The notes below the pieces were generated by a model. That model ran no database searches. It was not told the DNA's origin and saw nothing but the letters and a program-made list of their open reading frames with translations. This document shows, one piece after another, positions 10,306 to 59,550 of a stretch of 64,000 nucleotides of DNA. A program made the position numbers and the translations under genes. The DNA is from an uncultured delta proteobacterium (GTDB lineage Bacteria > Desulfobacterota > Syntrophobacteria > BM002), in contig CAVQGX010000014.1 in NCBI GenBank assembly GCA_963712115.1, forward strand, positions 22,878 to 86,877, in the 5' to 3' direction. Positions within the stretch are counted from its first letter, which is position 1. The number at the start of each line of letters is the position of its first letter.

Positions 10306-10393
10306 GATCGCTTAGGTGCCCCCGCTAAGCGGGGCGTCCCGATGGGCACATCGGGACTAATGGGAAGGAGTTTTCAGCAGCCCTTAAGCGATT
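10306..10393. repeat. Branched-hairpin element copy 1 (orientation B, long arm mostly deleted)
   Basis: GATCGCTTAG...TTAAGCGATT ends; CCCCGC/GCGGGG and TCCCGATG/CATCGGGA hairpins; flanked by GACAGGATTAAC...GTTAATCCTGTC. Confidence 0.8.
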
Positions 10394-10562
10394 CAAAAAT
10401 GGATTCGGTTAATCTTGTCTCTTTCATCCGGTAGATCCTGTTAATCCTGTCAAATTAACTTAGGAATTTACGTTAACTGGTCGTCGTTTAGCGTCACAAT
10501 CAAAATAAAATGGTAGAAAGATAATTGTCATAGATCAATAATATTAGTAGTGGAGAAATATA

Positions 10563-10772
10563 ATGATTTTGTCATACTGCAAACATTGCGAACATCATTC
10601 TACGTTAGAAATAGACGGTCATATTCATTCAAGATGTCTGAAGGAAAATTGTCTAGTTATTTATAGTAAATGCTTGACGGAAAAAGCTGTCGAGAAGCTT
10701 TTACGCGAGAATGAAGATCACAAAAAAGAGCTGGAAAATTCTGCACTGGATATATGTTATCCAAAGGCGTAA
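10563..10772 (+). CDS. Small Cys/His-rich hypothetical protein
   Basis: RBS GGAG; CKHCEHH...C...C...C pattern. Confidence 0.65.
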   Translation: MILSYCKHCEHHSTLEIDGHIHSRCLKENCLVIYSKCLTEKAVEKLLRENEDHKKELENSALDICYPKA

Positions 10773-11266
10773 GGCGAAGGGCATAGAGCATGGAGCATAG
10801 GGCATGGAGTTAGAGGTCGGAGGTCGGAGGTCAGAGGAAAGAAGTCAGATTGCGAAGTGCGAATTGAGGAAAGGCGCAAGGCGTAGGGCGCAAGGCGATT
10901 TGGGTCATTAGGCTTCGCCGTCATTAGGTCACTACGCTACGCTGTCATTTATTGTAAGAGGTAGAGGTCAGAGGTCGGAGGACAGAGGTCGGAAGACGGA
11001 GGTCAGTTTCACTAGGCACTAAGCAGTAAGCACTAGGCACAGCAAGGCGAATCGGGGACGGGGAGAGACGGAGACGCGGGGGAAAAAGGCAGAGGCCAGA
11101 TGAGGATTTCGGATTGCGAAACTGGGAACTCGCCCGAAGGGTGGGAGTCCGAAGGACAATTTAAAAGCAAGGAGACAGGAGTCAGCCCTTCGACAGGACC
11201 TGTCGACGAGCTCAGGTCGAGTCGCTCAGGCGAGTCGAGGCCCGCCCTACCAGTTGATAATACCGG

Positions 11267-11536
11267 TTAGCTTGTTTTATCTATTAGCCCCTTTTCTCGC
11301 TGTACTCTCTCGTGTAGCCATATTTTGATCAAAGCTCCTCGATCTACCCCGATTGTAGCTCTGATGCGATCGATATCATTGACTAGTTCTTCAGCAATAT
11401 CAACTGTAATACGGACCTTCTTGCCATGCCTGATGACCCTGGCCTTGGACGTGTCAATAAGGTCATGAATATCCTCACCGTCATCGAAACGTTGATCAAA
11501 CTCCTCAGTACTTTTAGCCGATCTCTTTCTCGCCAT
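11267..11536 (-). CDS. CopG/BrnA-like antitoxin
   Basis: EEFDQRFDDGEDI N-terminus and RHH-like C-terminus; overlaps brnT. Confidence 0.75.
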   Translation of the reverse strand: MARKRSAKSTEEFDQRFDDGEDIHDLIDTSKARVIRHGKKVRITVDIAEELVNDIDRIRATIGVDRGALIKIWLHERVQREKGLIDKTS

Positions 11537-11786
11537 ATAGCGTAGCCTCCTTTTTCCTGGCGCGTCTCACGGAAATGATTCGGATTGCCTTGCCACGCCA
11601 AGTAAATACCGCTGTCCAGAGCTTCTTTTGGATCTTTCCTATGAGAATGCCTCTGTTCTCAAGTGGATACGGCGGGTGGATTTCCACTCGACTATCATCC
11701 TTCCACAATTGTTTGGCGGTATCAAAATCGATACCATGCTTTATCTTGTTTGTGCGACTCTTGTCTTCGTCCCACTCGAATTCCAT
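11514..11786 (-). CDS. brnT: BrnT family toxin
   Basis: FEWDEDKSRTNKIKHGIDF...IRIISVRRA signature. Confidence 0.9.
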   Translation of the reverse strand: MEFEWDEDKSRTNKIKHGIDFDTAKQLWKDDSRVEIHPPYPLENRGILIGKIQKKLWTAVFTWRGKAIRIISVRRARKKEATLYGEKEIG

Positions 11787-12356
11787 GATGTCACTTTACT
11801 TTATTTGTACAAAAAAGCAACATATTTTGTATATATGTTCAAAAAACAACGCTTTCGTCGGTCCGAGTTACAGTGTTGAGATTAAGGGAACAGGGATCGG
11901 CGGGGAGAGGGAAGTCGGAGGTCAGTTTCACCAGGCACTAAGCAGTAAGCACTAGGCGCTCCCGCTGACGTGGTTGGAGGCAAGAATTCAGAGGTCTGAG
12001 GGCAGAGGTCGGAGGTCGGAGGACAGACTTCAGCCGGCAGCGGGCAGCAGGATGACGCGGTGAAGGGGAGAGACGGAGACGCGGCGTTGGGAGTCATTAG
12101 GCTTCGCCGTCATTAGGTCACTACGCTACGCTGTCATTTATTGTAAGAGGTAGAGGGTCAGAAGATTGCGAATTGAAGGAAGGTGTCAGGTGTCGGGTGT
12201 CAGGAGGCAGAAGGCAGAGAGTTGGAGGTTGGAGGAGCGGCCGAAGAATTTCGGAATGCGGATTGCGGATTGCGGATTTAAAAGCAAGGAGTCAGGAGAC
12301 AGAGGTTGGTCGTTTAAACCGTTGAAGTCGTTGAAATCGTTAAGGTCGTAGACTGG

Positions 12357-12572
12357 CTAAATGGCATCTCTGGAAAGCTTGTAGTTAACAGGCAACAGTC
12401 GGTCTAGATTGACATGCTTGGAGGCGTCAAGTATTTCGATGCCTATGATTTTATCTCCGTCACCGATGTCTAACACCACATCCTCAGACAGGCGCCTGTT
12501 AATAACTTCCTGCTTTCTGTCATCCAATCGGATATAAAGAAGGTCGGTTTTATCATTATATGAAACGTGCAT
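12357..12572 (-). CDS. DUF2283 family protein
   Basis: MHVSYNDKTDLLYIRL...IIGIEILDAS. Confidence 0.85.
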   Translation of the reverse strand: MHVSYNDKTDLLYIRLDDRKQEVINRRLSEDVVLDIGDGDKIIGIEILDASKHVNLDRLLPVNYKLSRDAI

Positions 12573-12573
12573 T

Positions 12574-12837
12574 TTATGCCTCCCACTTTCCGTAAAACAC
12601 ATAAACCGTAACAGTTACTATCAAATCTTCTTCCTTTACATAAAAGACCTCTACCATTTTCTGTTCATAATTTCTACCATGGCGTTCTTTTCTGAATTTA
12701 TACACTTTAGCTTTCCCAATTCTGCCGCGCTTTGCGGGTATCTCAAAGCCCGTCTCAATTACATCAGTAATTTCCTCCTCACTCGTTCCACGCTCTTCTG
12801 CTGTTTCTAGAGTATGCTGGTCAATTTGGATTCGCAT
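12574..12837 (-). CDS. DUF4258-like protein (putative toxin partner of DUF2283)
   Basis: HTLE.AEERG, C-terminal IVTVTVY; typical pairing with DUF2283. Confidence 0.7.
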   Translation of the reverse strand: MRIQIDQHTLETAEERGTSEEEITDVIETGFEIPAKRGRIGKAKVYKFRKERHGRNYEQKMVEVFYVKEEDLIVTVTVYVFYGKWEA

Positions 12838-14530: not shown

Positions 14531-14640
14531 CCGAGTTTTTTAGGCACGGGTCGCCTTACAGAATTCCACGGATCTAAAGGCTTTTATCTCTCACAGAGAG
14601 CGCAGAGATCTCAGAGGATAACCCCTCAGTAGATACAAGA

Positions 14641-14778
14641 GGATCGCCAAGAGTCCAACGGTGACCCTACAGAGAGGGAAAATAAGCGAGCTTGTTTTCC
14701 TCTCTGTAGGGACCCCCTAGTGTCTCGATGGCTCCCCATCGTGACACCCGCCTGTCGGCGGAAACCCTTGAGCGATCC
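14641..14778. repeat. Branched-hairpin element copy 2 (orientation A); right-end fragment also at 14894-14923
   Basis: GGATCGC...GCGATCC ends; long stem CCCTACAGAGAGG..AAGCGAGCTT..CCTCTCTGTAGGG; CGATG/CATCG and CCGC/GCGG hairpins. Confidence 0.85.
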
Positions 14779-15141
14779 GAACACATCTCCTCATTTGTTT
14801 TCATTTGAGCTCTCGGAGGGCTCGAGCGAGACCGCAGAGCGGGGGAGTGGGCGAGAGATGCTTATCCGTGTAATTCGTCAAACCTGCCATCACGCCCACC
14901 TAGCGGGGTCCTTTAAGCGATCCGTGCATTCACTCAATTTCTCTTGTTTCTCTCATCCTGCATATCCTGTTAATCCTGTCTCATTATGGCCTTTTCGTTC
15001 ATTGCAGATTGGAGTGTAGTGTATGTTTGTCTGCTAACTCCTGCTGTTAAGTCCCCGCTGTTGTCTTCTTTTTACCCATGCCCTATGCCTAATTTGGTTG
15101 ATTTGGGTTAGAAGAATTTTGGAGAGCCCACACGGAGGCCC

Positions 15142-16281: not shown

Positions 16282-17831
16282 ATGTATTTGTCACATTACA
16301 ATTTAGCTGAGAAGCCGTTTCAGATAAGTACTGATCCGAAGTTTCTCTGGCTGGGGGAGAAGCACAGGGAGGCTTTGGCGGTGCTGAAGTACGGCATTAT
16401 CAACAACCAGGGCTTTGTCCTGCTCACCGGTGACGTGGGTACCGGCAAGACCACCCTGATCAATGCCCTGGTAAACAGCCTGGACAAAGACACCATTGTT
16501 GCGGTTGTGTCTGACCCGAAACTAGACAGGCTCGAGTTCTTTAACCTCATTGCCAAGGCTTTCAGATTCAAAAAATCATTCAAAGACAAGTTGGATTTCA
16601 CCATCTATTTCAGCCAGTTTTTGAAAGCTGCATACAGAGCAAACAAAAAAGTGCTGCTGATTATAGACGAAGCACAGAACATTTCTTTGGATTTGCTGGA
16701 AGAGATTCGATTACTATCAAATATAGAGATTCCAGAGAGAAAGCTCTTGAATATATTTTTCGTAGGGCAGAATGAATTCAATAATATCTTAATGCGAAAC
16801 AAGAATGCAGGCCTCTAAGACAGAGAATTACAGTAACCTATAATATTGAACCTCTGACTGAGACCGAAACAGGAGAATACATTACACATCGATTAAAAGT
16901 TGCCGGGGCCACCAGTGAAATATTCACTAAAGGGGCAATTGGAAAAGTATACTCCTTCTCCAAAGGTTACCCACGTCTGATCAACATTATGTGTGATCAT
17001 GCCTTGCTGACTGGTTATGTTAAGGATCTTACGACAATCACACCTAAAACAATTAAGGAATGTACCAAGGAACTCAGACTTCCTGGTGAAATCAAATCCA
17101 GTAAGGCACAAAAAGTAAGACCCAAACAGAGAGAAGGGAAAATATTCGGGAAAAGAGCTATTCTTTATTCTTGCTTGCTCTTCCTTCTGATCCCTCTTTT
17201 TTACCCTCCTGTGTCAACTACACTAAAAGGTTATCTCACCAATGTGATCAATTTCTACGACGAGTTATTTCAGCAGCTTGCCGGTCTGGCACACAGCTAT
17301 AATGCCCAGGAGGTAGGAGTAAAGGAGTATGAGAGAGCAAGTCAAACTACCACTCCGTCGCTGAATCAATTAAGTAATACAGACAGCAAACCATCTTCCG
17401 ATGATATTGTTAAAATAGATAAATCTCCTGGTGACGAATCATCAAATCTAGGTGAACATAGCTTTAATCTAACTGATTGCCAGCTGACAATCCCATTTGG
17501 ATACAATTCAAATGAAGTACCAGAAACTGCTTATGGTCCATTGGACAAATGCGCTTCGATGATGTTGCAGAACCCATCAATTGCCATGATTATCAAGGGC
17601 TACAGTGATGGCGCCGGCCCTTATGCTTACAATAATAAGCTTTCAGAATTTCGCGCAAACATTGTGAAAAGTTATCTTGTCGGCCAAGGGATAAGCCCCA
17701 AGCGAATCAAGACTGTAGGTATGGGGGAGGAGAGTCCCTTGGAGTCCAACACTACGGCAGCGGGGCGGAGAGCCAATAGGAGAGTAGAAGCGGAGGTAGA
17801 GATCAGAGGTCAGAAGTCAGAGGTCAGATGA
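16282..17831 (+). CDS. ExeA-family AAA ATPase with C-terminal OmpA-like domain; frameshift near 16800
   Basis: Walker A GDVGTGKT, IIDEAQ, GQNEF; the shifted frame resumes ECRPLRQRI...YPRLINIMCDHALL; TM segment; OmpA motifs GYSD..G...YN.KLS..RA and RANRRVE. Confidence 0.85.
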
Positions 17832-17880
17832 CAGACTTCAGCTGGCAGCAAAAAGCATATTAACCGCAGACAGGCGAGAG

Positions 17881-39772: not shown

Positions 39773-39901
39773 GATCGCTCAAAAGCATAACGGGGACGTC
39801 CCGCAGTCACTAATAAGCAAGCTTATTATCGCCTGCGAGGACTCCCTTTCTCACCGATCTACTCGATCGGCTTCCCGCTGTGCGGGAGCTTTTAAGCGAT
39901 C
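39773..39901. repeat. Branched-hairpin element copy 3 (orientation A)
   Basis: GATCGCTCAAAAGC...GCTTTTAAGCGATC; apex TAATAAGCAAGCTTATTA; CCGATC/GATCGG; TCCCGC/GCGGGA. Confidence 0.85.
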
Positions 39902-43674: not shown

Positions 43675-43694
43675 AAATGCCTATGACGGATATC

Positions 43695-47184: not shown

Positions 47185-47231
47185 GCCATGAATTGGTCTT
47201 TTAAATATTTGAATTCCCCTGATTTTACAAT

Positions 47232-47601: not shown

Positions 47602-47736
47602 GATCGCTTAAAGGTCCGCGCATGGCTGCGCGTCCCGATAGAAAGCTATCGGGAACAATGAGCAGCCATTGAGGCCAAAAATAAACGAGCTTATTTTTGG
47701 CCTCAATAGGCTACCCATAATGCCCTTTAAGCGATC
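47602..47736. repeat. Branched-hairpin element copy 4 (orientation B)
   Basis: GATCGCTTAAAG...CTTTAAGCGATC; long stem ATTGAGGCCAAAAATAA..TTATTTTTGGCCTCAAT. Confidence 0.85.
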
Positions 47737-47971: not shown

Positions 47972-48115
47972 TTAGCGAGTGGAGTTTTTTTCGATTTCGC
48001 GGAGCTCTATTTCAACAGCCTGCTCTTCTCTCAGGATGAAGAAAATCACTCGGGCCAGCAAAATCAAAATCACTGCCACTGCGAAGATTAGTATGTAGCC
48101 AACTATGCTTATCAT
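47972..48115 (-). CDS. 47-aa single-TM peptide (not in the ORF track)
   Basis: MISIVGYILIFAVAVILILLARVIFFILREEQAVEIELREIEKNSTR; GGGAG upstream. Confidence 0.45.
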   Translation of the reverse strand: MISIVGYILIFAVAVILILLARVIFFILREEQAVEIELREIEKNSTR

Positions 48116-48299
48116 GATAAAACCTAGACTCCCGGTTCAAGGCGAAGGGCAATTTGTGTCATTAGGCTTCGCCGTCATTAAGTCATTACGCTGCGCTGTC
48201 ATTTATTGTAAAAGGTAGAGGTCAGAACTTCGAAATATTCTGCTCTACTCTTTGGTTTTTTGACTCCTTTCGCTATGCGCTATGCTCTATGCGCTATGC

Positions 48300-48647
48300 T
48301 TAACTCTGTCCTACTGCATCGGCCAGGGGTACTGGTTCAAAGTTCCTGAATTTCCTGGTAAATTTTACTCCTATTCCCTTGTTTTTCTGGTCCACTCTGA
48401 TAATGACAGCTTCTCCCCGAAGCAGAATGGTCTTTTCTTGACCTGTGTAATCAGGCGGGAGAGAGAATGCGATGACTGCGTAATCTTTGACTTTAAGAGC
48501 TCGCCACTGACTGGTCTTGATAAAGGCCCCTCCCTGGCTCACATCAACACTTGTTCCGTCCAAGGAATGACGCGATCCTTGTTTGAAAAGTTCCACGCGA
48601 AAACTCTGTCTCAGCCTGGGGTATTTGCGACGATCGGGTGCTTCCAT
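48300..48647 (-). CDS. PilZ domain protein
   Basis: RKYPR, DVSQGG; paralog of 15142 and 52405. Confidence 0.85.
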   Translation of the reverse strand: MEAPDRRKYPRLRQSFRVELFKQGSRHSLDGTSVDVSQGGAFIKTSQWRALKVKDYAVIAFSLPPDYTGQEKTILLRGEAVIIRVDQKNKGIGVKFTRKFRNFEPVPLADAVGQS

Positions 48648-49011
48648 GGCTTCATCCAGCAAATAGTAAAATCCAGGATCTACAATCCACTGTTTCGGCA
48701 AATATGCAAAAATTATGCAGGCTTATAGATTTTCCATTTTTACTTGTCTTTTCAAATAGTTGATGGATTAGGCACTGGCAGGCAAGTACGAAATGTAGTC
48801 GTCACATTGGGTAATTAAATGCCAATTGTGGAAAAAAAATGGATCAGTTTGGCCGGTTGAGCCGGTTTAGCCCGCTAGGAGCTTTCAACGGACAGCTGGC
48901 AGCAAAAGAAATTTAACCGCAGAGAGCGCTGAGAGCGCAGAGAAGACCACCTAACCGCAGACCCACGCAGACGAACGCAGACTTCAAGAATTCTCTCGGA
49001 GAATAAGCAAC

Positions 49012-49136
49012 GATCGCTTAAGGCCACCATGTGGCGTCCCGATTGAAAGCATCGGGAACTCATCCTTGTCATCAGTCACTGCCCATTGCTGCCGATGTAA
49101 AACATCGGTGCCAGATTCGCTGGCCCTTAAGCGACC
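49012..49136. repeat. Branched-hairpin element copy 5 (chimera: B-type left half, A-type right half)
   Basis: Two CCGAT/ATCGG hairpins and only the 3' arm of the long stem. Confidence 0.8.
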
Positions 49137-49854
49137 ATTACGATGGCATATTCACTCTGTCTCTTTAGACAAAGACTATTGACAGGCGCAGACGTCTCAT
49201 TAGACAGGATATACAGGATAGATAACATAAGAAGCTCCTACCATTGAAATGAAGGGGAGCCACTGAGGTATTTAAGGAGCTCTCGGAGTCTAGGCATGGG
49301 GCATAGGGGATGGGGCCCTTTGGGTCATTTCTTCGCCCTCGCTTCGCTCCGCTCAGTCCCGCAAGCGGGTCCCTAGTTCGGCTTCGCCGTCATTAGGTCA
49401 TTACGCTACGCTGTCATTTATCGTAATAGGTAGAGGGCCAGAAGATTTCGGATTGCGGATTTGGGATATGGGATGTGAGATAATTATCGCAGAGCGCAGA
49501 GCGTTAAGGGCGCAAGGCACTAGGTTCAAGGCAAGGGATCAAGGGCTGATCTATCGACTTCTACGATTTCTACGACTTATACGGTTTTTACGACTTCCGC
49601 TTTGAGCTTTCAGCTTAGAGCCATGAGTTTTACCTCTGCTGTCCTCTGATCTCCGACTTCCGACCTCTGGGTTCTTGCCTCTAACCTCTAACCTCTAACC
49701 TCCAACATCAACCTTGAGGCTTAGGTCTTTTGCTTTGCTCACATTGCTATTAACACTGATATCTGGTAATTAATGATCTGAAAAAGAGGAAGTACCAGTT
49801 AGAATCGACATTCAGCCGGATATGAAGCATAGAGCAATAGATATAGTGGAGTAA

Positions 49855-50082
49855 GTGATGAAAAAATATGAAAAAATTGAGATTAACCCAAACATAATGT
49901 TTGGAAAACCAGTAATCAAGGGCACACGGGTTACGGTCGAACAAATATTGCGCAAACTTGCAGGAGGGATGACAGCTGAAGAGATCATCACTGATCATCC
50001 ACACCTGCGGAAAGAGGATATCTTAGCCGCGCAAGAATTTGCAGCTGACTACTTAGCTGACGAGGAGATCGCCTTCGGGTAA
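49855..50082 (+). CDS. DUF433 antitoxin
   Basis: INPNIMFGKPVIKGTRVTVE..L..G...EEI. Confidence 0.9.
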   Translation: MMKKYEKIEINPNIMFGKPVIKGTRVTVEQILRKLAGGMTAEEIITDHPHLRKEDILAAQEFAADYLADEEIAFG

Positions 50083-50093
50083 ATGGGGACGAA

Positions 50094-50450
50094 TTGAAAT
50101 TCCTTGCCGACGAATGTTGTGATACTGGTCTGGTCGCATCCTTGAGAAAAGATGGCCACGATGTACTGTATGTCACAGAGAAAAAGGCTGGCGCCATTGA
50201 TGACGAAATCTTATCTGACGCTTATAAAGAAGAGCGCATTCTGATCACTGAGGACAAAGACTTCGGTGAGTTAATTTACCGTTTTAAGAAGCCTACTTAT
50301 GGTGTTGTCCTTCTCAAAATCGATGTCCACGAACGGCAGATCAAATGGTCCCGATTAAAGAAACTGATCGATGATTATGGGACTAGATTGCAGGGGCATT
50401 TTACAGTCGTGGACGCTCAAAAATTTCGTTTTCGCCCTTTGTCAATCTAA
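50094..50450 (+). CDS. DUF5615 PIN-like toxin
   Basis: KFLADE, GHDV, D.EI, ILITEDKDFG. Confidence 0.88.
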   Translation: MKFLADECCDTGLVASLRKDGHDVLYVTEKKAGAIDDEILSDAYKEERILITEDKDFGELIYRFKKPTYGVVLLKIDVHERQIKWSRLKKLIDDYGTRLQGHFTVVDAQKFRFRPLSI

Positions 50451-50620
50451 AATAATCTACCCTGCCCTCTTTTTATCTTACTAGCGGCTACCCGCCACTT
50501 AGTACTTACCTAGATCCGGAATCCAAAATGCTGCCTGCTGACAGCTGGCAGTAAAAGAAATTTAACCGCAGACGGACGCAGACCGCCGCAGACCTAAAAG
50601 CCTTTGAGAGAATAGGCAAA

Positions 50621-50747
50621 GATCACTTAAGCCCAGAATGGAGAGTGCCTGATTCGAAGAATAAGTAAACTCCTTCTTGTCATCAGGCACTCCACATTCC
50701 CAACGATCTAACCGATCGGCGCCAGCGTTGCTGGCATTTAGGCGATC
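50621..50747. repeat. Branched-hairpin element copy 6 (orientation A)
   Basis: GATCACTTAA...TTAGGCGATC; GAGTGCCTGAT/ATCAGGCACTC stem; CGATC/GATCG; GCCAGC/GCTGGC. Confidence 0.8.
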
Positions 50748-50965
50748 CAGCTATTTAGCCTATTCTCCCATCATTGAAGTGATTTGGAGCTCGCTGAGGT
50801 ATTGGGAACTCTCGGAGTTTTAAAAAGCTGGAGAGCATGGAGTATGGGGCATAGGGTTAGAGGACAGAGGACAGGTAATAGGATTTCGGATTTAAAAACT
50901 GCCTACCGGGATTTCTGAAATAAACGATTTAAACGGTTTCGACGATTTCAAAGATTTCAACGGTT

Positions 50966-51298
50966 TTAACTCTCATAGAAACAACTCTCTAACTGGAGAG
51001 CGAGCACCACTTTTCGAGAAACCTCTAACATTGTTTGTTTGTCCAAGGTCCCCACATATTTTTCCAATTTTTTTTGAGGAACAGTATGGAGATTATCTGC
51101 TTGTACAAAAGAAGGTTCCTGTAAGTTAGCTTTTTGTCCAATAAATACCTCTGTTGGATAACCTTTTCCTTTCGTGGTTATCTCAGCAACTGTAACCTTG
51201 TTCAAGTATTGCAGGACGTTTTGCCTTGTGAGAACAACTATCGGTCTAGTCCCGATCTTTCCGCCCAGGTTAATCATCCATATATCCCCGCGGTTCAT
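50966..51298 (-). CDS. mazF: MazF/PemK toxin
   Basis: RGDIW, RPIVVL, VAEITT, VGTL. Confidence 0.88.
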   Translation of the reverse strand: MNRGDIWMINLGGKIGTRPIVVLTRQNVLQYLNKVTVAEITTKGKGYPTEVFIGQKANLQEPSFVQADNLHTVPQKKLEKYVGTLDKQTMLEVSRKVVLALQLESCFYES

Positions 51299-51528
51299 GA
51301 TTCACCCCACTGTTCGACCTCAATCCATGCGTCAGAATCATCTAAATCTGGAGGGTTTTCCTTGAGTTTTGTGATCCATTCGTCTTCGAATTTTTTTACT
51401 TCACGTTCTCGTATCCAGGCTTTCAAAGCTTCCCTTATCACCGCAGAACGGGAGAGATTCGAGGAGGAGGCAATTCGGTCTACGGCGCTGAGAAGGTTCT
51501 CGTCAAAGCTAATCTGTACGTTCTTCAT
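51295..51528 (-). CDS. RHH/CopG antitoxin
   Basis: QISFDENLL.AVD...SRSAVIREAL. Confidence 0.85.
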   Translation of the reverse strand: MKNVQISFDENLLSAVDRIASSSNLSRSAVIREALKAWIREREVKKFEDEWITKLKENPPDLDDSDAWIEVEQWGES

Positions 51529-51768
51529 TGAACACTCCTATTAAGATCGATATTTTAAAACATTATTTAATACATAATAATATACGCTATCACATACATA
51601 AAAATCAACCCCGAAAGAATGACAGTGTGAATTTATTGCAACCAAATCACGTAGGCGCCGGGTTTACCTGCACAGATTATTAACCGCAGAGAACACAGAG
51701 CACGCAGAGAAAACCACTTAACCGCAGACGAACGCAGACGAGAAAGCTTCAATGAACTTGAAAGCAAC

Positions 51769-51896
51769 GATCGCTTGAAACCCAAATGGGAAGCTCTCGC
51801 AGCCATCGATAAGCCAGCTTGTCGCTGCCAGCGAGGACTTCCCATTTACGCCGATGTAGTCCATCGGCGCCAGCTTCGCCAGGCTTTCAAGCGATC
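51769..51896. repeat. Branched-hairpin element copy 7 (orientation A)
   Basis: GATCGCTTGAAA...TTTCAAGCGATC (compensatory TTG/CAA); AAATGGGAAG/CTTCCCATTT; CGCCGATG/CATCGGCG. Confidence 0.85.
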
Positions 51897-52404
51897 ACTG
51901 CCTTTACTTATTCTCACAATTCCGACTATTGACATTGTTGACAGTCGCAGACTAAAGGAATTGGCAAGAGCTTGAATCCAGAATTCAGGAGAAAAAGATC
52001 AAAATCGAGTGCCTCACATGGCGGCCTAAACTACTTCGACTATTTCAAATAGTTAAACGTTTTCCCGCTTTGAGCTTTCAGCTTAGAGCCATGAGCTTTG
52101 CCTCTGCCATCCTCTGATCTCCGACTTCCGACCTCTGACATCTGGGTTCTTGCCTCCAACCTCAAGCGAAGCGCCCCTCCAACCTCCAACAGCAACCTTG
52201 GGCCTTGCGCCCTGAGCCTTATGCCGTTTCTTTCCAGTTACAGCTATGGTTTGAAAAAGTGCACCTGCCAATTTTTCCAGGCTCCTTTGGCCCTCATATC
52301 TAAGTGTTTGTATTTGTTTATTTTTATTTAGATGAAGGAGTAAAAAATCTTTTTTAGGCATACTTTCGGCCTGCTTTTCGGATGGGAATGGAATTTGCAT
52401 TAGC

Positions 52405-53367
52405 ATGGGGCTGACTCTACTAAATGATGCGTCTGAAACACCTGGATGCCTATCCATGGCAGTAGAAAAGAAACATATGACCAACGAGGAAAAGCGTAAG
52501 CACATCAGAATTAAAAGATTCTTCCGGACGAAACTGTCCAAAGATGGAATGTCGCAACCTATTGAAGGAAACACCGAGAATGTGAGCCAGGGCGGAGCTT
52601 ACATAAAAACAAAGGACTGGCATTCTTTCAAACCAAATGATAAAACTACCATCACGGTTTACCTCCCACCTATTTTTTCCGGTCAGGATGGGATTATCGG
52701 GCTGCAAGGCTCTGCTAGAATAACCAGGGTGGACGAGGACGACGAGGGTGTAGCAGTCCAGTTTCTGCAAAACTTCAAACAGTTCGAAAGAATTGAAGAA
52801 ATGGATATACCAGGAAAAATTAGATACAAGAACTTGGCCCACTATCTCTCAGCCACCTCGAGCATTCCATCGAAAGCATTTGCCGAGATGCACCCTGACG
52901 GTTTCCTGGTGGAAAAAACACAAAAGAGCATGGATAAAGAGGTCATCTTTCAGTTCAGCACCAAGTCATTCGAGGATGAGGAAGTGCTGAGGGCGCAGAG
53001 GCAAGGCGTGGTACTGGGAGACATCCTCGAGGCCAGAGTAATAGAGATAAAAGAGAGAAAAGAATCGACAACTCCTTCTCATGTCACCATAGGCCGGGCT
53101 GCTCAGAATGATATCATCCTTTACAACAAGATGGTTTCCAAGGATCACGCTTATCTGGAGATTCCTGAAAAAGGTGGGAATTGTTCCCTGGTGGATGTGG
53201 GGTCCAAGAATGGGACGCTCCTGAATGGGGATGAGGTGACCCCGAATAAGACATATCCCCTCAGAGATGGGGACGAGATATCCTTTGGTCCTGAGACCAA
53301 GGTGGTGTACTTCTCTTCAAGAACCTTCCATGAGTTTTTGACGCAACTTAAGACGCCTTCCGGCTAG
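52405..53367 (+). CDS. PilZ-FHA fusion protein
   Basis: N-terminal RKHIR/NVSQGG; C-terminal FHA IGR..NDI..VSKDHA..GSKNGT.LNG; start may be 52456. Confidence 0.85.
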   Translation: MGLTLLNDASETPGCLSMAVEKKHMTNEEKRKHIRIKRFFRTKLSKDGMSQPIEGNTENVSQGGAYIKTKDWHSFKPNDKTTITVYLPPIFSGQDGIIGLQGSARITRVDEDDEGVAVQFLQNFKQFERIEEMDIPGKIRYKNLAHYLSATSSIPSKAFAEMHPDGFLVEKTQKSMDKEVIFQFSTKSFEDEEVLRAQRQGVVLGDILEARVIEIKERKESTTPSHVTIGRAAQNDIILYNKMVSKDHAYLEIPEKGGNCSLVDVGSKNGTLLNGDEVTPNKTYPLRDGDEISFGPETKVVYFSSRTFHEFLTQLKTPSG

Positions 53368-53680
53368 TAACCTCTACTAGACACAAATCCGAATTAACTG
53401 CAGACGATTTGCTAGCGGGCAGCGGACAGCTGACAGCAAAAGATAATTAACCGCAGAGAACGCTGACCCGCACGCCTCGCCTGAGCGGCCCGTCCGCCTC
53501 GGCTGAAGCCTCGCGATGCCGGGCGGGCTCGCGATGGCGGGCTGGGAGCGCAGAGAAGAAGATTCACCACGGAGTTACACGGAAAGTCACGGGCTTTTTA
53601 ACCGCAGACGGACGCAGACAGATTGGTACCGCATAAGTGCATTGGTCTGCGGTTAGAAATAAAAAGGCTGGCACTGAGTC

Positions 53681-53959
53681 CTAATATGCGACGCTGCGGT
53701 GGGAGGCAGCAAGCATGAACACTATTTTCTCGTCATCATCGATTTCATAGAAGAAGCGGTAGGCGCCGATTCGATATCGCCAGGTGTCTGGATCGAAACC
53801 CTTTAGCTTCTTGATATTTGGTCCGAAGTGTGGATGCTCACGCAATTGAGGGTAGACATAATCGCGAAGTTTCTGTGCCACTTTGGGCTGGCCGGAACTG
53901 CCAATACGGCGTAAGTCATCTTGAAACTGTTCGGTTTCAAAAATCCGGTACTTACTCAA
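53681..53959 (-). CDS. RelE/ParE family toxin
   Basis: PHFGPNIKKL..WRYRIGAYRFFY..HR..AY. Confidence 0.88.
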   Translation of the reverse strand: MSKYRIFETEQFQDDLRRIGSSGQPKVAQKLRDYVYPQLREHPHFGPNIKKLKGFDPDTWRYRIGAYRFFYEIDDDEKIVFMLAASHRSVAY

Positions 53960-54194
53960 CGAAACTCCCTTTACGGAGACGAGCCTCCTGCGAACCCTTC
54001 TCGATACGTTTCATGAGCTCTTTGCTTGCCATGATCTCTGCTACCTCGACATCATCGGCGAATTGTTGCTCGCGGACTTTGGCCAAGGCAGCAGTCTCAA
54101 TTAGGTTCGACAGTGACCGATTTTCGGCCTTAGCTGCTTCCAAGAAAGTGATGTACGTTTCGTCACTCAGTCTAAGAGTTACCGTCTTAGGCAT
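53952..54194 (-). CDS. RHH-type antitoxin
   Basis: KTVTLRLSDE...AAKAENRSLSNLI; overlaps the toxin. Confidence 0.8.
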   Translation of the reverse strand: MPKTVTLRLSDETYITFLEAAKAENRSLSNLIETAALAKVREQQFADDVEVAEIMASKELMKRIEKGSQEARLRKGSFVE

Positions 54195-54403
54195 TTTGCA
54201 CCTACCTTGTTATTCTTTTTTATTCTATTGTATTCACAACGAAGAAAATGTCAACTGCAGACAAAAGAATTCACCACGGAGTCGCACGGAAAGTCACGGG
54301 CTTTTTAACCGCAGACGAACGCAGACCACCGCAGACGTTTCATTAGACAGGATTAACAGGATGTACAGCATAAGATAAACGAGAGAAGTCGGATTGATGC
54401 CAG

Positions 54404-54535
54404 GATCGCTTAAAGTCACAATGGTGAACCCACAGATGGGAAAACGAGCGAGCTAGTTTTCCTATCTTAGGGTTCCCCCTTTGTCCCGATGATTCCATCG
54501 GGACCACCCGCCGTGCGAGTGACCCTTAAGCGAAT
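54404..54535. repeat. Branched-hairpin element copy 8 (orientation A), inside an insertion at 54337-54586
   Basis: GATCGCTTAA...TTAAGCGAAT; apex GAGCGAGCT; GTCCCGATG/CATCGGGAC. Confidence 0.85.
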
Positions 54536-54727
54536 GTTACCTTGACATACTCACCCACTTTTTTACAGTGAATAATTATTGACATTCGCAGACAGATTGG
54601 TACCGCATAAGTGCATTGGTCTGCGGTTAGAAATAAAAAGGCAGGCGCGGTGGCCTGCCCAACTGGATTCTGACTACTGGCTGCTAACTACTTACTCTAT
54701 GCGCTATGCGCTCTGCTCTATGCGAAT

Positions 54728-55255
54728 TTAGGGCATAAATCGTTCGCCCGCAGGTTCCATAAGGGGTTCTGCCACGGGATCCATGAGAGGTTCGTAACGT
54801 GGTATTTCAAGAGGGGCAACCCAGATTTCCACCCTTATGTTAATTGAAGTAACCTGCATGTTGATAAGACAGATTCGGCTCTCCTTTTGGTAGAAGAGCA
54901 AGGTCCGAGTATATTTGAGACTGGCCTGCAACATCCAGCCGTTCTTCGCCATGGTCCCCTCAAAGAACTTGAGTAGCGACTCGTAGTCTACATTCCCGTT
55001 ATACACCAGGTTGCCCGTAGCGAATTCAGCAGTCATGTAAACAAAGGACTCTTTCGCATCTAAGTCGAGTTCTTTAGGTATGGGAACGTCGGGGAATTCG
55101 CGGATGGTCACGATTGGGGTGGGGCCTTCTTCCCCGGTGGGTTCTGTGTGAACCGTCTTGGTACAGCCTGAACATAGCAAAAAGAGGGTTAGTGCAATAC
55201 CGACGATCATTGACTTTTGCTGGCAAATGATCATGGTTATCTCCTTCTGTGTCAT
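54728..55255 (-). CDS. Hypothetical lipoprotein
   Basis: Lipobox CSGC; FPDVPIP..L...F...M..NGW. Confidence 0.7.
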   Translation of the reverse strand: MTQKEITMIICQQKSMIVGIALTLFLLCSGCTKTVHTEPTGEEGPTPIVTIREFPDVPIPKELDLDAKESFVYMTAEFATGNLVYNGNVDYESLLKFFEGTMAKNGWMLQASLKYTRTLLFYQKESRICLINMQVTSINIRVEIWVAPLEIPRYEPLMDPVAEPLMEPAGERFMP

Positions 55256-55580
55256 TATTCAAAGATCTAGCCCGGATATTTCACGTATCATTAGTCAAGA
55301 CCACCTACTTGTCAACCCGTAATCATTGAACATTTAACATTTCTTCGCGCTCACCCTGCTCCGCTCAGGCCCGCAAGCGGGTCCCTGGTGACGCATTTCT
55401 CATTGGTCATTTATCAGAGTCTCCTCTTGTATTAACCGCAGAGAACGCCGAGAGCGCAGAGTAGATCTAATTTAGATCCGCGAAGTACGCGAAGAAAGCG
55501 AATAGAGTAATCTGAATTCTTCAGACAGTATTTACAGGATGTACCGGATGTGACAAGCAAATGTAGAAGAGTTGATGATA

Positions 55581-55715
55581 GGATCGCTTAAGTAACCCCG
55601 CGGAGCGGGGCGTCCCGATGGACACATCGGGACAAATGGGAAAGCATCTGGTGGACGAAAGTAAGCTAGCTTGCTTTCGTCCACCAGCGCTTCCCATTCA
55701 GCTCTTAGGCGATCC
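55581..55715. repeat. Branched-hairpin element copy 9 (orientation B)
   Basis: Near reverse complement of copy 11. Confidence 0.88.
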
Positions 55716-56073
55716 TATCTTCTATTTGTCTTCTTCGTGGTTCTGTCTTTTATCCGTGTAATCCGCCTGCCCGCCATCGTCCGCCTGAGGCGGACTCAGG
55801 CGAGGCGGGCGGGTGTGTCCCGCCCTCGGCGGGACCCGTGCCAAAAAAACCGCTTCTCTAGGATCTATAACCCTCCGTGGTGAAAGTTTTTTGTCTGCGG
55901 CGGTCTGCGTGGGTCTGCGGTCAATTCGCAAAAGAGTGGTTCTTATCGGCTCTGTAGGCTGATTACTTGAAATACCCCTCGTGATGCACTATTATCTCAA
56001 CAAACATATTGAGACATGGAGCACGTAACACTCCAATAATCCATGGCCCTTTTGTTTCACCGCGAAGGGCTAG

Positions 56074-57588
56074 TTGGATACGCCAGGATCAACTGACATT
56101 ACGAGGTTTATGCTCATTAAAGATCAGGACTCTCATCTAAAGAACAAAAAGGGAATATTTAACCAGATAATTGAATGGGTTGCGCCACTTCGCCGCAAAA
56201 CAGAAGCCGGTGACACAGCGGTTTCACCCCACCTGCCTGATGGAAAAACCTTCACCGAATTTAACCTTAGTGACGAAATCCTAAAAGGTATCGAGAATGC
56301 CGGCTTCTTCCGTTGCACCCCCATCCAGGAACTAGCCCTACCTATAACGCTGGCAGGGGAGGATATTGCAGCTCAGGCGCAGACCGGCACCGGAAAAACC
56401 GCCGCTTTTCTCATCACCCTCTTTCAGCATCTGCGTAAAATTGACAAGCGCAAGCCAGGTATGCCCTCGGCCCTTATTCTGGCACCTACCAGGGAACTGG
56501 CATTGCAAATCTACCAAGACGGCCAGGTCCTTGGTAAATACACTGGGCTCAAAATGGTCGCTGTATTCGGAGGCATTGACTATCAGAAACAGGCCTCACA
56601 ACTACGCGAAGGAGTCGACATAGTAATCGCCACCCCGGGAAGACTGATCGATTACATGAAACAAAAGGCTTTTATTCCTGAACGGATCAAGATCCTGGTG
56701 GTTGATGAGGCAGACCGAATGTTCGATATGGGCTTCATTAAGGACCTGCGCTATATTCTAAGACGTTTGCCCTCCTATGACCAGCGCCAGTCAATGCTTT
56801 TTTCGGCAACTTTGTCGTCACGCGTCCTGGAACTGACCTACGAGTACATGAACCTGCCCAAGGAAATCTATGTCACGCCGGACGAGATAACCGTGGAAAC
56901 TGTGGAGCAGTCTGTCTTTCACGTTGCTAAACACGAGAAACTACGTTTGCTGTTAGGGGTGCTTGCAAAAGAACCTTGGGAAAGGGTGCTTATTTTTGCT
57001 AACACCAAGGCCACGGTGGAGTGGCTAAGCGCAAAACTCAAAGGAAATGGTTATCCAGTCAAGGGACTGAGCGGAAATCTTAATCAACGGCAAAGGCTAA
57101 AAATCATTAACCATTTTAAGTCCGGAGATCTCAAGATCCTCGTTGCTACTGATGTGGCCTCTAGAGGTCTGCACGTGGAAGAAATCTCTCATGTTATCAA
57201 CTACGATTTGCCGCAGGATCGGGAAGATTACATACATCGGATTGGTCGCACCGCCCGGGCCGGTATGTCAGGCAAGGCCATTAGTCTGGCCTGCGAGGAG
57301 TACGTTTACTCACTGGAGGCCATTGAGGAATATATAGGCGAAAAAATACCCGTATTCTGGCCTGAAGATGATTGGCTATTACCAGACAAATCGGGGAGAT
57401 TCCGTGCTGCTGACCGGCCAAAAATGGGGCAAAAAAGAAGGGGCTCTCCTCCCCGTAAGGGAAAACCCGGCCAGCGATCCCGTGGAGGAACTCGACCGAA
57501 AAAGCAATCGCGGGGCAAAAGTTCGCAAAGCGCAAAGCGTAAGAAGCCAGAGGGCAGAGGTCCGAAGTCAGAGGTCAGTAAAAACTAG
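56074..57588 (+). CDS. DEAD-box RNA helicase (RhlB-like)
   Basis: CTPIQ, AQTGTGKT, PTRELA, TPGR, DEAD, SAT, HRIGRTARAG, SLACEEY. Confidence 0.92.
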   Translation: MDTPGSTDITRFMLIKDQDSHLKNKKGIFNQIIEWVAPLRRKTEAGDTAVSPHLPDGKTFTEFNLSDEILKGIENAGFFRCTPIQELALPITLAGEDIAAQAQTGTGKTAAFLITLFQHLRKIDKRKPGMPSALILAPTRELALQIYQDGQVLGKYTGLKMVAVFGGIDYQKQASQLREGVDIVIATPGRLIDYMKQKAFIPERIKILVVDEADRMFDMGFIKDLRYILRRLPSYDQRQSMLFSATLSSRVLELTYEYMNLPKEIYVTPDEITVETVEQSVFHVAKHEKLRLLLGVLAKEPWERVLIFANTKATVEWLSAKLKGNGYPVKGLSGNLNQRQRLKIINHFKSGDLKILVATDVASRGLHVEEISHVINYDLPQDREDYIHRIGRTARAGMSGKAISLACEEYVYSLEAIEEYIGEKIPVFWPEDDWLLPDKSGRFRAADRPKMGQKRRGSPPRKGKPGQRSRGGTRPKKQSRGKSSQSAKRKKPEGRGPKSEVSKN

Positions 57589-57789
57589 GCACAATCTGTG
57601 GCGAGACGCGCGAGACAGGGAAAACATAAGTCGGACACGGAGGCCCGCCCTGCTGGCTACTGACTGGACATAATCTCAGTAACATCCGCGAAGTACTCGA
57701 AGAGCACGAATAAAGAAAGCTGAATTAATTTGACAGGATTTACAGGATATACCGGATAAGAGCAGCATGAGAAACTGAGCCGATGAAGG

Positions 57790-57922
57790 GATCGCTTAAA
57801 AGGTCCATGTGGGAACCTTGAGCATCAAAAATAAGCCAGCTTATTTTTGAGCTCTAGGGTTCCACATTAATCCCGATGATCCCATCGGGGTCACCCGCTA
57901 TGCGGGGTACTTTTAAGCGATC
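57790..57922. repeat. Branched-hairpin element copy 10 (orientation A)
   Basis: GATCGCTTAAAAG...CTTTTAAGCGATC; TCAAAAATAAGCCAGCTTATTTTTGA. Confidence 0.88.
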
Positions 57923-58022
57923 TCAACTCTCTGCGTGCTCTGCGTTCCCTGCCCGCCATCGTCCGCCTGAGGCGGACTCAGGCGAGGCGGGCGGGTCTGC
58001 GGTTAATCGGTAGGGGTTGTAG

Positions 58023-58277
58023 ATGCGTGCTGCCAGACTTTTGGGAGAATTGGAGTCCTTGGCGGAAAAGCTTGGAGTCGAGGTCGTTTACGAACGATTG
58101 CCCCGCTGCCGCAGTGGCCTCTGTCGAGTAAATGAGCAGTATCTTCTTTTTGTGGATAGAGCTCTGCCCGAAGATGCGCAAGTGGACGTGTTTATCTCTG
58201 CCCTTTCACGCTTTCCTCTGGATGATCTTCAAGTGCTCCCCTACGTCAGGGAAATTTTCGAGTCCCACAAATTATAA
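58023..58277 (+). CDS. Small hypothetical protein
   Basis: 84 aa; LAEKLGVEV.YE..GLCRV..LFVD pattern, reminiscent of an ImmA/IrrE N-terminal half without HExxH. Confidence 0.65.
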   Translation: MRAARLLGELESLAEKLGVEVVYERLPRCRSGLCRVNEQYLLFVDRALPEDAQVDVFISALSRFPLDDLQVLPYVREIFESHKL

Positions 58278-58488
58278 AGCATAGAGTGAGAAGCCAGTAG
58301 TCAGTAGCCAGTAGTAATTTCGAAATTTGAAACTGAAACTCCGCAATCCGAAATCATCTCCCTATTCCCCTCGCCTTCCTAAATCCACGAAGTACGCAAA
58401 AAACGCGAATAGAGGAATCTGAATTCTTTAGACAGGATTAACAGGATATACAGGATTAGAGAAGCAGAATGAACTGAGTCTATTGAAG

Positions 58489-58618
58489 GATCGCTTAAGG
58501 GCTGAATGGGAAGGCCTGGTAGACGAAAGTCAGCTAGCTCACTTTCGTCTACCAGGCTTTCCCATTGGTCCCGATGTGCCATCGGACACCCCGCTTCGCG
58601 GGGGGCACTTAAGCGATC
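58489..58618. repeat. Branched-hairpin element copy 11 (orientation A)
   Basis: GATCGCTTAAG...CTTAAGCGATC; GCCTGGTAGACGAAAG/CTTTCGTCTACCAGGC. Confidence 0.88.
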
Positions 58619-58745
58619 TCTACTCTCTGCGTGCTCTGTGTTCTCTGCGGTTAACAATCCGTGCAATCCGCGTGTCCCGCGGAGTGGGACCCGTGCCAAA
58701 AATAGTCTGCGTCTGTCTGCGTGGGTCTGCGGTGAGATGGGAGGA

Positions 58746-59162
58746 TCAAGCCTCGGCAAGGGACCTGAGGAGGGAGATGAGTTTTTCTCTCTCAGCGGGA
58801 GAGACGTCCACAAAATTCAGACCAACATCGAACTGATGTTTCCTCTCGCTCTCGAACTTGTTGTACCAGAGCACCTGGGCTTTAATGGTCCACGAGTCCC
58901 CCTCACCCGAGGAAGATAGTGTAAGAACTAGCGGTGTATTACCCGAGGGATCATTGTCCAGGTGCAGATGGTGCCCCTGAATTAACATGTGATTGGTTTG
59001 AAGACAGGCTCCAATTGGAGAGATATCGGTGAGTCGTCCTTGCACCTTATCGGTGCGGGGTCTTTGTTCGACAGAATCCCAGACCTGAAATTCCACGTCT
59101 ACAGCCGCGGAATATCGCGAATGCCTGCGACGCTCCAGACCAAGATACTTTCTAAGCCCCAT
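58746..59162 (-). CDS. PilZ domain protein
   Basis: RRHSR, DISPIG, VGLNF. Confidence 0.85.
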   Translation of the reverse strand: MGLRKYLGLERRRHSRYSAAVDVEFQVWDSVEQRPRTDKVQGRLTDISPIGACLQTNHMLIQGHHLHLDNDPSGNTPLVLTLSSSGEGDSWTIKAQVLWYNKFESERKHQFDVGLNFVDVSPAEREKLISLLRSLAEA

Positions 59163-59423
59163 GGTGGTGCCCCCCATCGGGTTATTATGAGATTTTTTCA
59201 CAAGCCTACAGTATTAAGCGACAATTAACACAATTTGTCAAGGAAAAGTGGTAAAGGGGTGAACGGTGAACGGTGAACGGTAACCAGTTGAGATAACAAA
59301 CTTAATTAATTGCCTGATTTGTCAAAATCAAGCTGACTGTTTTCAGCTGGCAGCAAGAGAAATCTAACCGCAGACGGCCGCAGACCACCGCAGACAAAAA
59401 ATTTCTTACGCAGAATAGACAAT

Positions 59424-59550
59424 GATAGCCTGAAAGCGCAATGGGAGCACCTGCAGCCATCAATAAGCAAGCTTATTATTGCCTGCCGCCACCCCCATTC
59501 CTGCCGATGTAATCCATCGGCATCCCGCCTCGCGGGACTTTCAAGCGATC
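59424..59550. repeat. Branched-hairpin element copy 12 (orientation A)
   Basis: GATAGCCTGAAAG...CTTTCAAGCGATC; AATAAGCAAGCTTATT; TGCCGATG/CATCGGCA; TCCCGC/GCGGGA. Confidence 0.82.

Follow-up and report, generated by a model that had tools for sequence, protein, structure and literature searches.

An interspersed repeat family with a conserved, covarying four-way junction in uncultured sediment Desulfobacterota

Introduction

What kind of genetic element keeps its folded shape while much of its sequence drifts? The question is raised by a 64,000-nt stretch of DNA (hereafter the window; positions 22,878–86,877 of contig CAVQGX010000014.1, GenBank assembly GCA_963712115.1) from an uncultured member of the Desulfobacterota (Syntrophobacteria; BM002), in which a preliminary description had pointed out a family of ~130-nt branched hairpins, here called cloverleaves. 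Few DNA elements are known to be recognised by their folded shape rather than their sequence, the main ones being attC sites, repetitive extragenic palindromes (REPs) and the ends of IS200/IS605 insertion sequences (ISs). Each of these has led to an unusual enzyme.

Results

Architecture of the element

In the window the element is represented by 10 full-length and 2 degenerate copies and by 1 fragment (Table 1). Most full-length copies measure about 126–138 nt and have four helices on a fixed plan. The closing stem (P1) pairs GATCGCTTAA(A/G) with (C/T)TTAAGCGATC, giving inverted ends of 10–12 bp. The long arm (P2) has ~27 bp, with the base AATGGGRAG/CTYCCCATT, a variable middle and the tip AATAAGCNAGCTTATT. 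It is followed by a short arm (P3), in which a loop of 4–6 nt separates TCCCGATG from CATCGGGA, and by a short GC arm (P4), in which CCCGC and GCGGG flank a loop of 3–4 nt. The order P1-P2-P3-P4 defines orientation A, and the opposite strand is orientation B. Orientation A lies on the + strand in 8 full copies, and on the − strand in the full copies at 47602 and 55582 and the truncated copy at 10306, a mixture of orientations that the preliminary description does not mention.

This plan of closing stem, long arm, CCGATG arm and short CCCGC arm is the one that the preliminary description gave as typical, and both direct reading and the folds bear it out. All twelve places listed there, as well as the right-end fragment, are present in the sequence. 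Covariance model R1, built from the 10 window copies, finds in the window exactly those twelve and none besides, with 83.5–126.8 bits for the full-length copies. The tally of twelve copies is accurate for ten, the other two places (10306 and 49012) being degenerate. The end motif GGATCGCYWAR, with at most one mismatch, occurs 22 times in the window, compared with 7.2 ± 3.15 (maximum 15) in 100 shuffles.

Folding and covariation

A conserved four-way junction with covariation is strongly supported. Folded as single-stranded DNA (ssDNA), the 12 window copies reach z-scores between −4.8 and −12.9, a stability equalled by 0 of 200 shuffles. The four-way junction is the minimum-energy fold in 9 of the 10 full-length copies; the copy at 50621 loses its closing stem. 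With RNA parameters, 17 copies from the genome fold at −47.6 to −87.1 kcal/mol. RNAalifold, which had been proposed as a check and was run on ten aligned window copies, returned 40 pairs, 21 of them with two-sided changes.

R1 was built after the full four-helix structure had been written onto this ten-copy alignment. Covariation was then counted, on alignments fitted to the model structure, in a set of 58 full-length copies and later in 121 matches (103 distinct) from the window's genome and its relatives. In the 103 distinct copies, standard pairing occupies 90.3% of 5094 cells, against 75.8% with shuffled partners, and it drops to 31.6–46.3% when partners are slid by 1–3 columns. Two-sided changes are found at 47 of 50 pairs (756 cells, against 200.5 shuffled), and none of 500 shuffles attains any observed covariation measure. 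The smaller set gives an unchanged picture. The earlier observation that the long-arm sequence drifts while its pairing is kept is upheld, with covariation far above the controls and agreement from the independent single-sequence folds. The compensatory changes first quoted for it, GGTGGACG/CGTCCACC versus GGTAGACG/CGTCTACC and TTAA/TTAA versus TTGA/TCAA, are also real.

Per-column conservation is mostly 0.9–0.98 in P1, P3, P4 and the tip of P2 (0.59–0.9 at their outermost pairs) and 0.28–0.8 in the middle of the long arm. P1, P3, P4 and the long-arm tip are thus constrained in sequence, and the long-arm middle is constrained only to pair.

Table 1. Copies of the element, associated repeat units and transposase genes in the window.
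Feature	Position	Strand	Evidence
Palindromic 'GACAGGAT' array composite surrounding the truncated copy	10261..10451		sequence reading
Truncated copy, long arm almost wholly deleted	10306..10393	-	R1 54 bits; fold
~271-nt composite unit 'TCTCTCAC...GGGCGAGAG' carrying the 14642 copy, approximate extent	14586..14859	+	unit survey (length 271)
Full-length copy: closing stem, long arm, CCGATG arm and CCCGC arm	14642..14777	+	R1 83.5 bits; ssDNA fold z -9.23
Remnant of another, disrupted copy: right end only, with the 3' half of the short GC arm and TTTAAGCGATCC	14894..14923	+	sequence reading
Transposase gene, IS1595 type	25594-26445		profile match
Transposase gene, IS3 type (integrase core only)	27088-27771		profile match
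IS630-type transposase gene with ends 30899-30927 and 32005-32033	30899-32033		profile match and end mapping
Full-length copy	39773..39901	+	R1 102.2 bits; z -6.32
Full-length copy, opposite orientation	47602..47736	-	R1 116.3 bits; z -12.78
Mirror-like chimera: reversed short arms, one long-arm strand, forward short arms; no paired long arm	49012..49136	+	R1 45.4 bits; fold
Full-length copy, ends decayed	50621..50747	+	R1 83.7 bits; z -5.49
Full-length copy	51769..51896	+	R1 109.5 bits
Full-length copy, right end decayed (GCGAAT)	54404..54535	+	R1 104.6 bits
Full-length copy, opposite orientation; at the syntenic locus of another species the copy points the other way	55582..55714	-	R1 123.6 bits; flank comparison
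Full-length copy between DEAD-box helicase gene and small open reading frame	57790..57922	+	R1 111.6 bits; syntenic loci
Full-length copy, top score in the window	58489..58618	+	R1 126.8 bits; z -12.88
Full-length copy beyond terminator-like site of carboxypeptidase gene	59424..59550	+	R1 92.9 bits; terminator scan

DNA or RNA

The evidence leans towards folded DNA rather than RNA. An A.C cell on one strand is a G.U wobble on the other, and a working RNA, which normally tolerates G.U far better, should show an excess of G.U. Read in orientation A, the mismatch cells include 147 G.T and 169 A.C out of 5094 in the 103 copies (98 and 104 in the 58-copy set), an equality that points away from RNA. 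Placement is intergenic and neutral with respect to strand: 32 of the 33 copies in the window's genome fall outside open reading frames (ORFs) of at least 150 aa, copies are found between tandem, convergent and divergent genes, and in 13 readable tandem contexts the transcribed strand carries orientation A four times and orientation B nine times. Terminator-like sites (T-run hairpins) at 54660–54639 and 59660–59637 separate the ends of a lipoprotein gene and a carboxypeptidase gene, respectively, from the copies beyond them, and a scan of 44000–62000 gave a terminator-like score to a single window copy (57894–57906). The variable long-arm sequences have no targets: 29 queries against the rest of the genome returned 1 chance-level match of 16 nt, and a guide or antisense role for this arm was rejected on that result. 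The leaning towards DNA draws on this mismatch symmetry, the strand-neutral intergenic placement, the terminators ahead of copies and the lack of arm targets, all of which are compatible with transcription of the copies.

A match to a described Rfam family, which had been named in advance as speaking against a new element, did not appear. Rfam models give 0 matches in the window at gathering thresholds, and in E-value mode only miRNA-precursor models match, through the long hairpin, at 19–32 bits against thresholds of 70–97.

In short Logan contigs from relatives (share of sampled words ≤0.28), RNA-library contigs cover genes, and cover over the five bins with the element is low, which is not evidence of absent transcription. 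One RNA-library contig of 88% likeness, perhaps from another species, passes from the end of the helicase gene to the small ORF in 91 letters, compared with 415 bases in the window, and a second (also 88%, perhaps another species) from the small ORF to the PilZ gene in 163 letters rather than 408. These lengths hint that relatives lack the intergenic repeat mosaics described below at the two gaps. No precise excision is seen among the joints in contigs from the relatives' sequencing runs.

Distribution

The element is restricted to one family of uncultured sediment sulfate-reducer relatives. The covariance-model search of the genome and its relatives that had been suggested at the outset gave 62 matches at 33 places in the window's genome, 12 of which belong to the window's contig and another 10 to contig C31. 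Over 41 genomes, R1 matches 19, including 16 of the 17 others of the genus, 2 of 4 from the family's other genera and 0 of 19 from other families. An improved model (R2) run over the whole class matches 19 of 122 genomes, with 18 of 21 others in the family and 0 of 100 in the other five families. Within the genus, genomes differ in copy number, from 0 to dozens of copies.

When one genome per prokaryote species was scanned with an exact pattern, 59 loci matched, 43 of which are confirmed by R2. All but one of these (42/43) come from metagenome-assembled genomes bearing the labels Desulfobacteraceae, Syntrophobacterales, Syntrophobacteria, Deltaproteobacteria, Desulfatiglandales or Desulfobacterota, and the 16 loci not confirmed are chance hits from unrelated taxa. 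The remaining confirmed locus (L087) is a 763-bp contig filed under Methanosarcinales, whose full copy is 96–98% identical to copies from a Desulfatiglandales bin; the contig is probably mis-binned rather than an archaeal occurrence. The pattern is further present on at least 120 metagenome contigs and on 0 viral contigs, and a 341-nt element query matched no plasmid and no phage. Sequencing runs holding parts of the window come from marine sediment, estuary and mangrove samples.

Turnover at syntenic loci

Copies are gained, lost, replaced and inverted at syntenic loci. The gene order helicase/small ORF/PilZ is kept in other species of the genus; in one of them the first gap holds a copy from a different subfamily, inverted, and the second gap holds none, and in a further species the first gap has no copy. 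When the outer flanks (160–600 nt from each copy) were compared, 11 copy pairs at matching loci had the same orientation and at least 8 were inverted. In the mapped inversions, the directly aligning segment passes the closing stem, by 24 nt upstream in one pair and by ~77 nt downstream in another, which places the breakpoints in the surrounding inverted arrays and not at P1. Intergenic alignments across species were too divergent for breakpoint placement.

Identity between copies at matching loci is 0.57–0.98. Seventeen such pairs show 95 compensated two-sided, 116 one-sided and 16 uncompensated two-sided changes. In three aligned pairs the flanks are ~90% alike and P1, P3 and P4 are alike, with the middle of P2 rewritten on both strands. 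The positional partner of a copy is often not its closest relative, and P1, P3 and P4 are common to any two copies, so replacement or conversion by another family member, rather than rapid change in place, is the simplest reading of these differences. Copy pairs within a genome reach 95–98% identity, which indicates recent duplication.

Three forms lack the long arm (10306, C59:12638 and C52:3575). Together with the chimera at 49012, they reflect the usual instability of long palindromes; a chimera of this form would arise from template switching or from recombination between copies of opposite orientation.

Carrier units and repeat mosaics

The element is not free-standing, and the copies form the core of larger repeat mosaics. 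These intergenic mosaics consist of short arrays in which a 7-nt core (for example GAGGTCA, CGCAGAC, CACAGAG, ACAGGAT, CACGAAG or CACTAGG) recurs every 7–10 nt. Heptamer arrays occur in the window at 7860–12050, 17780–17850, 35400–35660, 38400–38550, 40000–40130, 44150–44200, 57520–57590 and elsewhere. The short tandem heptamer repeats of heterocystous cyanobacteria resemble them. Around the cloverleaf the arrays point inwards, upstream seven-mers reappearing downstream as reverse complements; CACAGAG, for instance, occurs 20 times upstream of copies, and downstream 15 times as the reverse complement and once in the same sense.

At least three settings recur. The cloverleaf may lie within a discrete unit, (TA)TCTCTCACAGAG... 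/ ...GGGCGAGAG(ATA), of 260–314 nt with unrelated outer flanks (28 examples), between TTAACCGCAGAC arrays and their inverted partners, or between GACAGGATTAACAGGAT arrays. The ends of the carrier unit are inverted (TCTCTC.C / G.GAGAGA), and a double unit with two cloverleaves ~350 nt apart is also seen. TA precedes TCTCTC in 14 of 28 units and A-TA follows GAGAG in 10 of 28; there may have been a TA duplication that has since decayed, or the inverted repeat may simply extend further. A 301-nt carrier unit was considered as one long hairpin and rejected, its arms folding locally.

Empty sites were sought by blasting the 70-nt left and right flanks of 33 copies separately against the genome, and only other filled sites were returned. 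Three further candidates were set aside. The array pair without a cloverleaf at C15:16138–16207 retains GCGATC and looks like a deletion remnant, a 70-nt minimal unit at C47:5395 has the appearance of a hairpin deletion, and AACCGCAGA end pairs without a cloverleaf proved to belong to different families of small repeats.

Contigs C2, C11, C20, C26, C27, C30, C33, C37, C46, C51 and C68 of the window's genome (G000) carry a separate repeat family, whose copies have the inverted ends AACCGCAGAAT...ATTCTGCGGTT and lie in either orientation; 21 of them measure 63 nt and one measures 62 nt. A 55-nt variant lies at ~53600–53654 in the window, and the end motif is common to the arrays flanking some cloverleaves.

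Gene neighbourhood and candidate partner enzymes

The right half of the window contains six toxin-antitoxin pairs at 43241–54194 (HicAB, ParE/Phd, PIN/MazE-like, DUF433/DUF5615, PemK/RHH and ParE/RHH-like), three PilZ genes, a DEAD-box helicase gene and a D-Ala-D-Ala carboxypeptidase gene. Between 47602 and 59550, a single gene or operon, in many cases a toxin-antitoxin pair, separates consecutive copies. The left half carries regulators, polysaccharide genes and three transposase genes (Table 1).

The preliminary description saw no cognate enzyme in the window. The window does contain transposase genes of IS1595, IS3 and IS630 type; the worked-out ends of the IS630 type are unrelated to those of the element. 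IS630-type transposases, which score identically at C14, C39 and C53, three places in the genome, were rejected as partner on this ground. Pairs of cloverleaf ends spanning a transposase gene at long range are absent from this draft genome (94% complete). The Y1 transposase (PF01797) was likewise rejected: it is widespread and does not track the element, one genome (G014) having 19 element matches and zero PF01797, and three others (G013, G018 and G021) matching PF01797 but lacking the element. The IS200-like copies and the one inspected RAYT-like gene (for REP-associated tyrosine transposase) of the window's genome carry hairpins of their own. This Y1 gene (G000:C20:238180–238446) has GTAG-tagged GC-rich hairpins on both sides, a classic REP/RAYT appearance unrelated to the cloverleaf.

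The genome also has an integron (G000:C27:1–3303; L158), with an integrase at C27:2350–3303 (TIGR02249, 486.9 bits against a cut-off of 265), at least 4 divergently oriented small cassettes upstream and canonical RYYYAAC...GTTRRRY attC sites; the array is truncated by the end of the contig. Above cut-off, integron integrases are present in 6 of 19 element-bearing genomes, 13 having none, and in 9 of 19 genomes from other families without the element. It was rejected as partner for want of co-occurrence, and the attC sites are unrelated to the element in sequence. The tabulation of neighbouring genes that had been proposed did not produce a candidate: across 80 metagenome loci no family recurs beside copies (the largest cluster has 6 of 80), and the ten commonest neighbour clusters are ordinary genes, with no transposase or recombinase among them.

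Two further repeats were observed in the window. A duplication of ~1.5 kb (11040–12586 and 35616–37246; 96–100% identical, 24.6 kb apart) contains ORFs at 11575–11955 and 36151–36501 without a Pfam match. Three tandem 273-nt repeats (100%, 100% and 95% identical; 41540–42358) lie inside a 796-aa surface-protein gene (40420–42810, − strand) and encode domains that, from sequence alone, we take to be PKD-like.

Discussion

Nature of the element

We give an even chance to the reading that the cloverleaf is a non-autonomous, structure-dependent mobile or recombining DNA element served by a trans-acting enzyme, for which we infer that the folded DNA is the substrate. The active form of this lineage-specific non-coding repeat would be the folded strand or an extruded cruciform. 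A trans-acting protein would recognise either one and move or exchange the element; the closing stem, both short arms and the long-arm tip are the likely parts to be recognised, and the long-arm middle would need only to pair. Copies may spread or be exchanged among intergenic sites by transposition, gene conversion or both, and would decay by point mutation and hairpin deletion. Their nesting in other small palindromic repeats could reflect a target preference or recombination among these repeats. The preliminary description proposed a selected four-way-junction element of ssDNA or RNA; the junction holds and the evidence leans towards DNA, and turnover and inversion at syntenic loci suggest that selection may act on the element's own spread, not on a host function.

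Several observations weigh against a mobile or recombining element of this kind. Neither the comparisons of flanks within the genome nor those between species yielded a clean pair of filled and empty alleles, and the TA beside the carrier-unit ends could equally belong to the inverted repeat. This draft genome, 94% complete, has no IS with cloverleaf or carrier-unit ends, neither Y1 transposase nor integron integrase co-occurs with the element, and the 80 metagenome loci share no neighbouring family. Persistence in the same syntenic gaps across species could mean a host function. Three pairs at least 90% identical show 12 one-sided and 0 compensated changes, and over all pairs compensated changes climb with distance, reaching 0.20 per pair position among the most distant copies. 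Such accrual with divergence suggests lineages of functioning copies in which each copy bears damage of its own, a pattern that fits ordinary selection on structure and would suit a host-selected element as well as a mobile one. The pair counts, moreover, come from alignments fitted to the model structure and so are biased towards it; the single-sequence folds are independent.

A bolder form of the same proposal seems rather unlikely to us, namely that the cloverleaf is the substrate of a new class of single-strand or junction-specific DNA recombinase or transposase, standing beside the integrase/attC and Y1/hairpin pairs. Such an enzyme would recognise the four-way junction by three arms of specific sequence, the fourth being a spacer of free sequence, and would insert preferentially into the centres of small palindromic repeats, which, if true, would produce the nested mosaics.

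Two host-centred explanations are each improbable in our estimate. In the one, the element is a structured RNA selected by the host (a 3'-end protector, processing site, terminator module or small RNA), active on whichever strand is transcribed. The very strong covariation and stable folds would suit it, as would persistence in the same intergenic gaps across species; in orientation A a T run inside the closing stem follows the short GC arm, and one copy scored as terminator-like. The REPs of E. coli are reported to be mostly transcribed (PMC4550694), which was also counted in its favour. It is at odds with the equal numbers of G.T and A.C, the independence of orientation from gene direction, the occurrence of copies between divergent genes, the single terminator-like copy beside two copies lying beyond another terminator-like site, and the lack of Rfam matches and of arm targets. 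In the other explanation, of which we think no better than improbable, the element is a DNA architecture module kept by the host, comparable to bacterial interspersed mosaic elements (BIMEs), the mosaic REP clusters of enterobacteria. Nucleoid proteins, gyrase or a regulator would bind it or act on its cruciform, and it would spread mainly by recombination and gene conversion and not through transposition of its own. Here speak the phased 7–10-nt array mosaics that fill many intergenic regions and in which the element is embedded, conserved arms that are palindromic like the operators of dimeric proteins, and persistence at syntenic gaps despite replacement and inversion, with breakpoints outside the closing stem. 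Palindromic sites in duplex DNA, however, do not explain compensated changes in the long-arm middle, copy number varies widely within the genus, and a genus member represented by a single-contig assembly of 87% completeness carries zero copies, which makes the element dispensable.

That the cloverleaf is an attC-like site of an integron-like cassette system bounding toxin-antitoxin and PilZ genes is very unlikely. Its length in the attC range, a structure kept without sequence and the one-gene spacing of copies among toxin-antitoxin genes resemble such a system, and all 6 genomes of the family with an above-cut-off integron integrase also carry the element; yet its ends are not those of attC, array orientation is mixed, the integrase is distributed without regard to the element, and the helicase/small-ORF/PilZ order is kept across species while copies vary, so the genes are not the moving part. 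Retron non-coding RNAs have closing a1/a2 repeats, short msr hairpins and a long msd hairpin. Read in orientation B, the element resembles this layout, and a retron-like or other reverse-transcriptase template might be supposed. This we regard as extremely unlikely: each genome has tens of copies, mismatches show no strand bias, no neighbour family recurs, and the ten commonest clusters hold no reverse transcriptase, no genome scan having been aimed at these enzymes.

The element is well defined and abundant, numbering hundreds of copies across about 20 species and at least 120 metagenome contigs, and its clear pairing rules give the search for a new DNA-structure-specific enzyme a concrete image to work from. 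The poor assembly of genomes from this sediment lineage is likewise explained by the element, which also offers a lineage marker. Were it only a passive repeat, it would still document an unusually rich intergenic repeat mosaic outside cyanobacteria and enterobacteria.

Comparison with known systems

A literature search found no description of the element; most subscription journals lay outside its coverage. The preliminary description did not recognise the element as a tRNA, an attC site or a known REP, and this assessment is confirmed for tRNAs, attC sites and REPs of the GTAG type. ARAGORN predicts 0 tRNA or transfer-messenger RNA genes in the window.

The attC sites act as folded single-stranded DNA, and large ones may have branched tips. 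Like them, the element falls within about 60–140 nt, keeps structure rather than sequence and lies among small accessory genes such as toxin-antitoxin pairs. In contrast to them, it ends in GATCGCTTAA/TTAAGCGATC (103 copies) without the R'' RYYYAAC and R' GTTRRRY boxes, occurs in mixed orientation, and has copies in conserved housekeeping synteny, the integrase and the canonical, unrelated attC sites of the genome's own integron being on another contig (C27).

With REPs, BIMEs and their RAYTs, the element shares intergenic palindromic repeats in tens of copies, in either orientation and in mosaics with short motifs. REPs are reported to be single hairpins of 20–40 bp with a GTAG or CGTC tag (PMC3733652), whereas the element is a 130-nt four-way junction with no GTAG tag at its ends and no co-occurring Y1 transposase.

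Miniature inverted-repeat transposable elements (MITEs) of bacteria include Correia/NEMIS, ERIC, RUP and Nezha. The element resembles MITEs in being non-coding, intergenic and variable between relatives, with inverted ends and a length within 100–300 bp, and the 260–314-nt carrier unit, bounded by TCTCTCAC ends and often flanked by TA, has the look of a classic MITE. Both the cloverleaf and the carrier unit have terminal inverted repeats, and presence/absence variation between relatives is seen. A MITE, however, folds, if at all, through its terminal repeats, whereas the three internal arms of the element covary, and no parent IS was found in this draft genome.

The ends of IS200/IS605 elements use ssDNA hairpins as recognition structures, whose stems may change if pairing is kept. 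The element differs from them in its variable flanks without a conserved flanking tetranucleotide and in the absence of Y1 co-occurrence, and the IS200-like copies of the window's genome bear other hairpins. The inverted terminal repeat of adeno-associated virus is a viral telomere of nested palindromes, in which an outer stem closes two inner arms that exist in flip and flop states. The element shares an outer stem that closes smaller hairpins and two inverted states, but it is interspersed in a chromosome, has three arms and inverts at breakpoints outside its closing stem. Retron non-coding RNA differs again, the element occupying 33 places in the genome with no recurrent neighbour gene.

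The element thus belongs with the structured interspersed DNA repeats (attC, REP/BIME, hairpin-ended IS derivatives and MITEs) and departs from each of them in its defining features. Its clean four-way junction lifts it above an ordinary repeat, and its MITE-like mosaic setting tempers any claim of a new mechanism.

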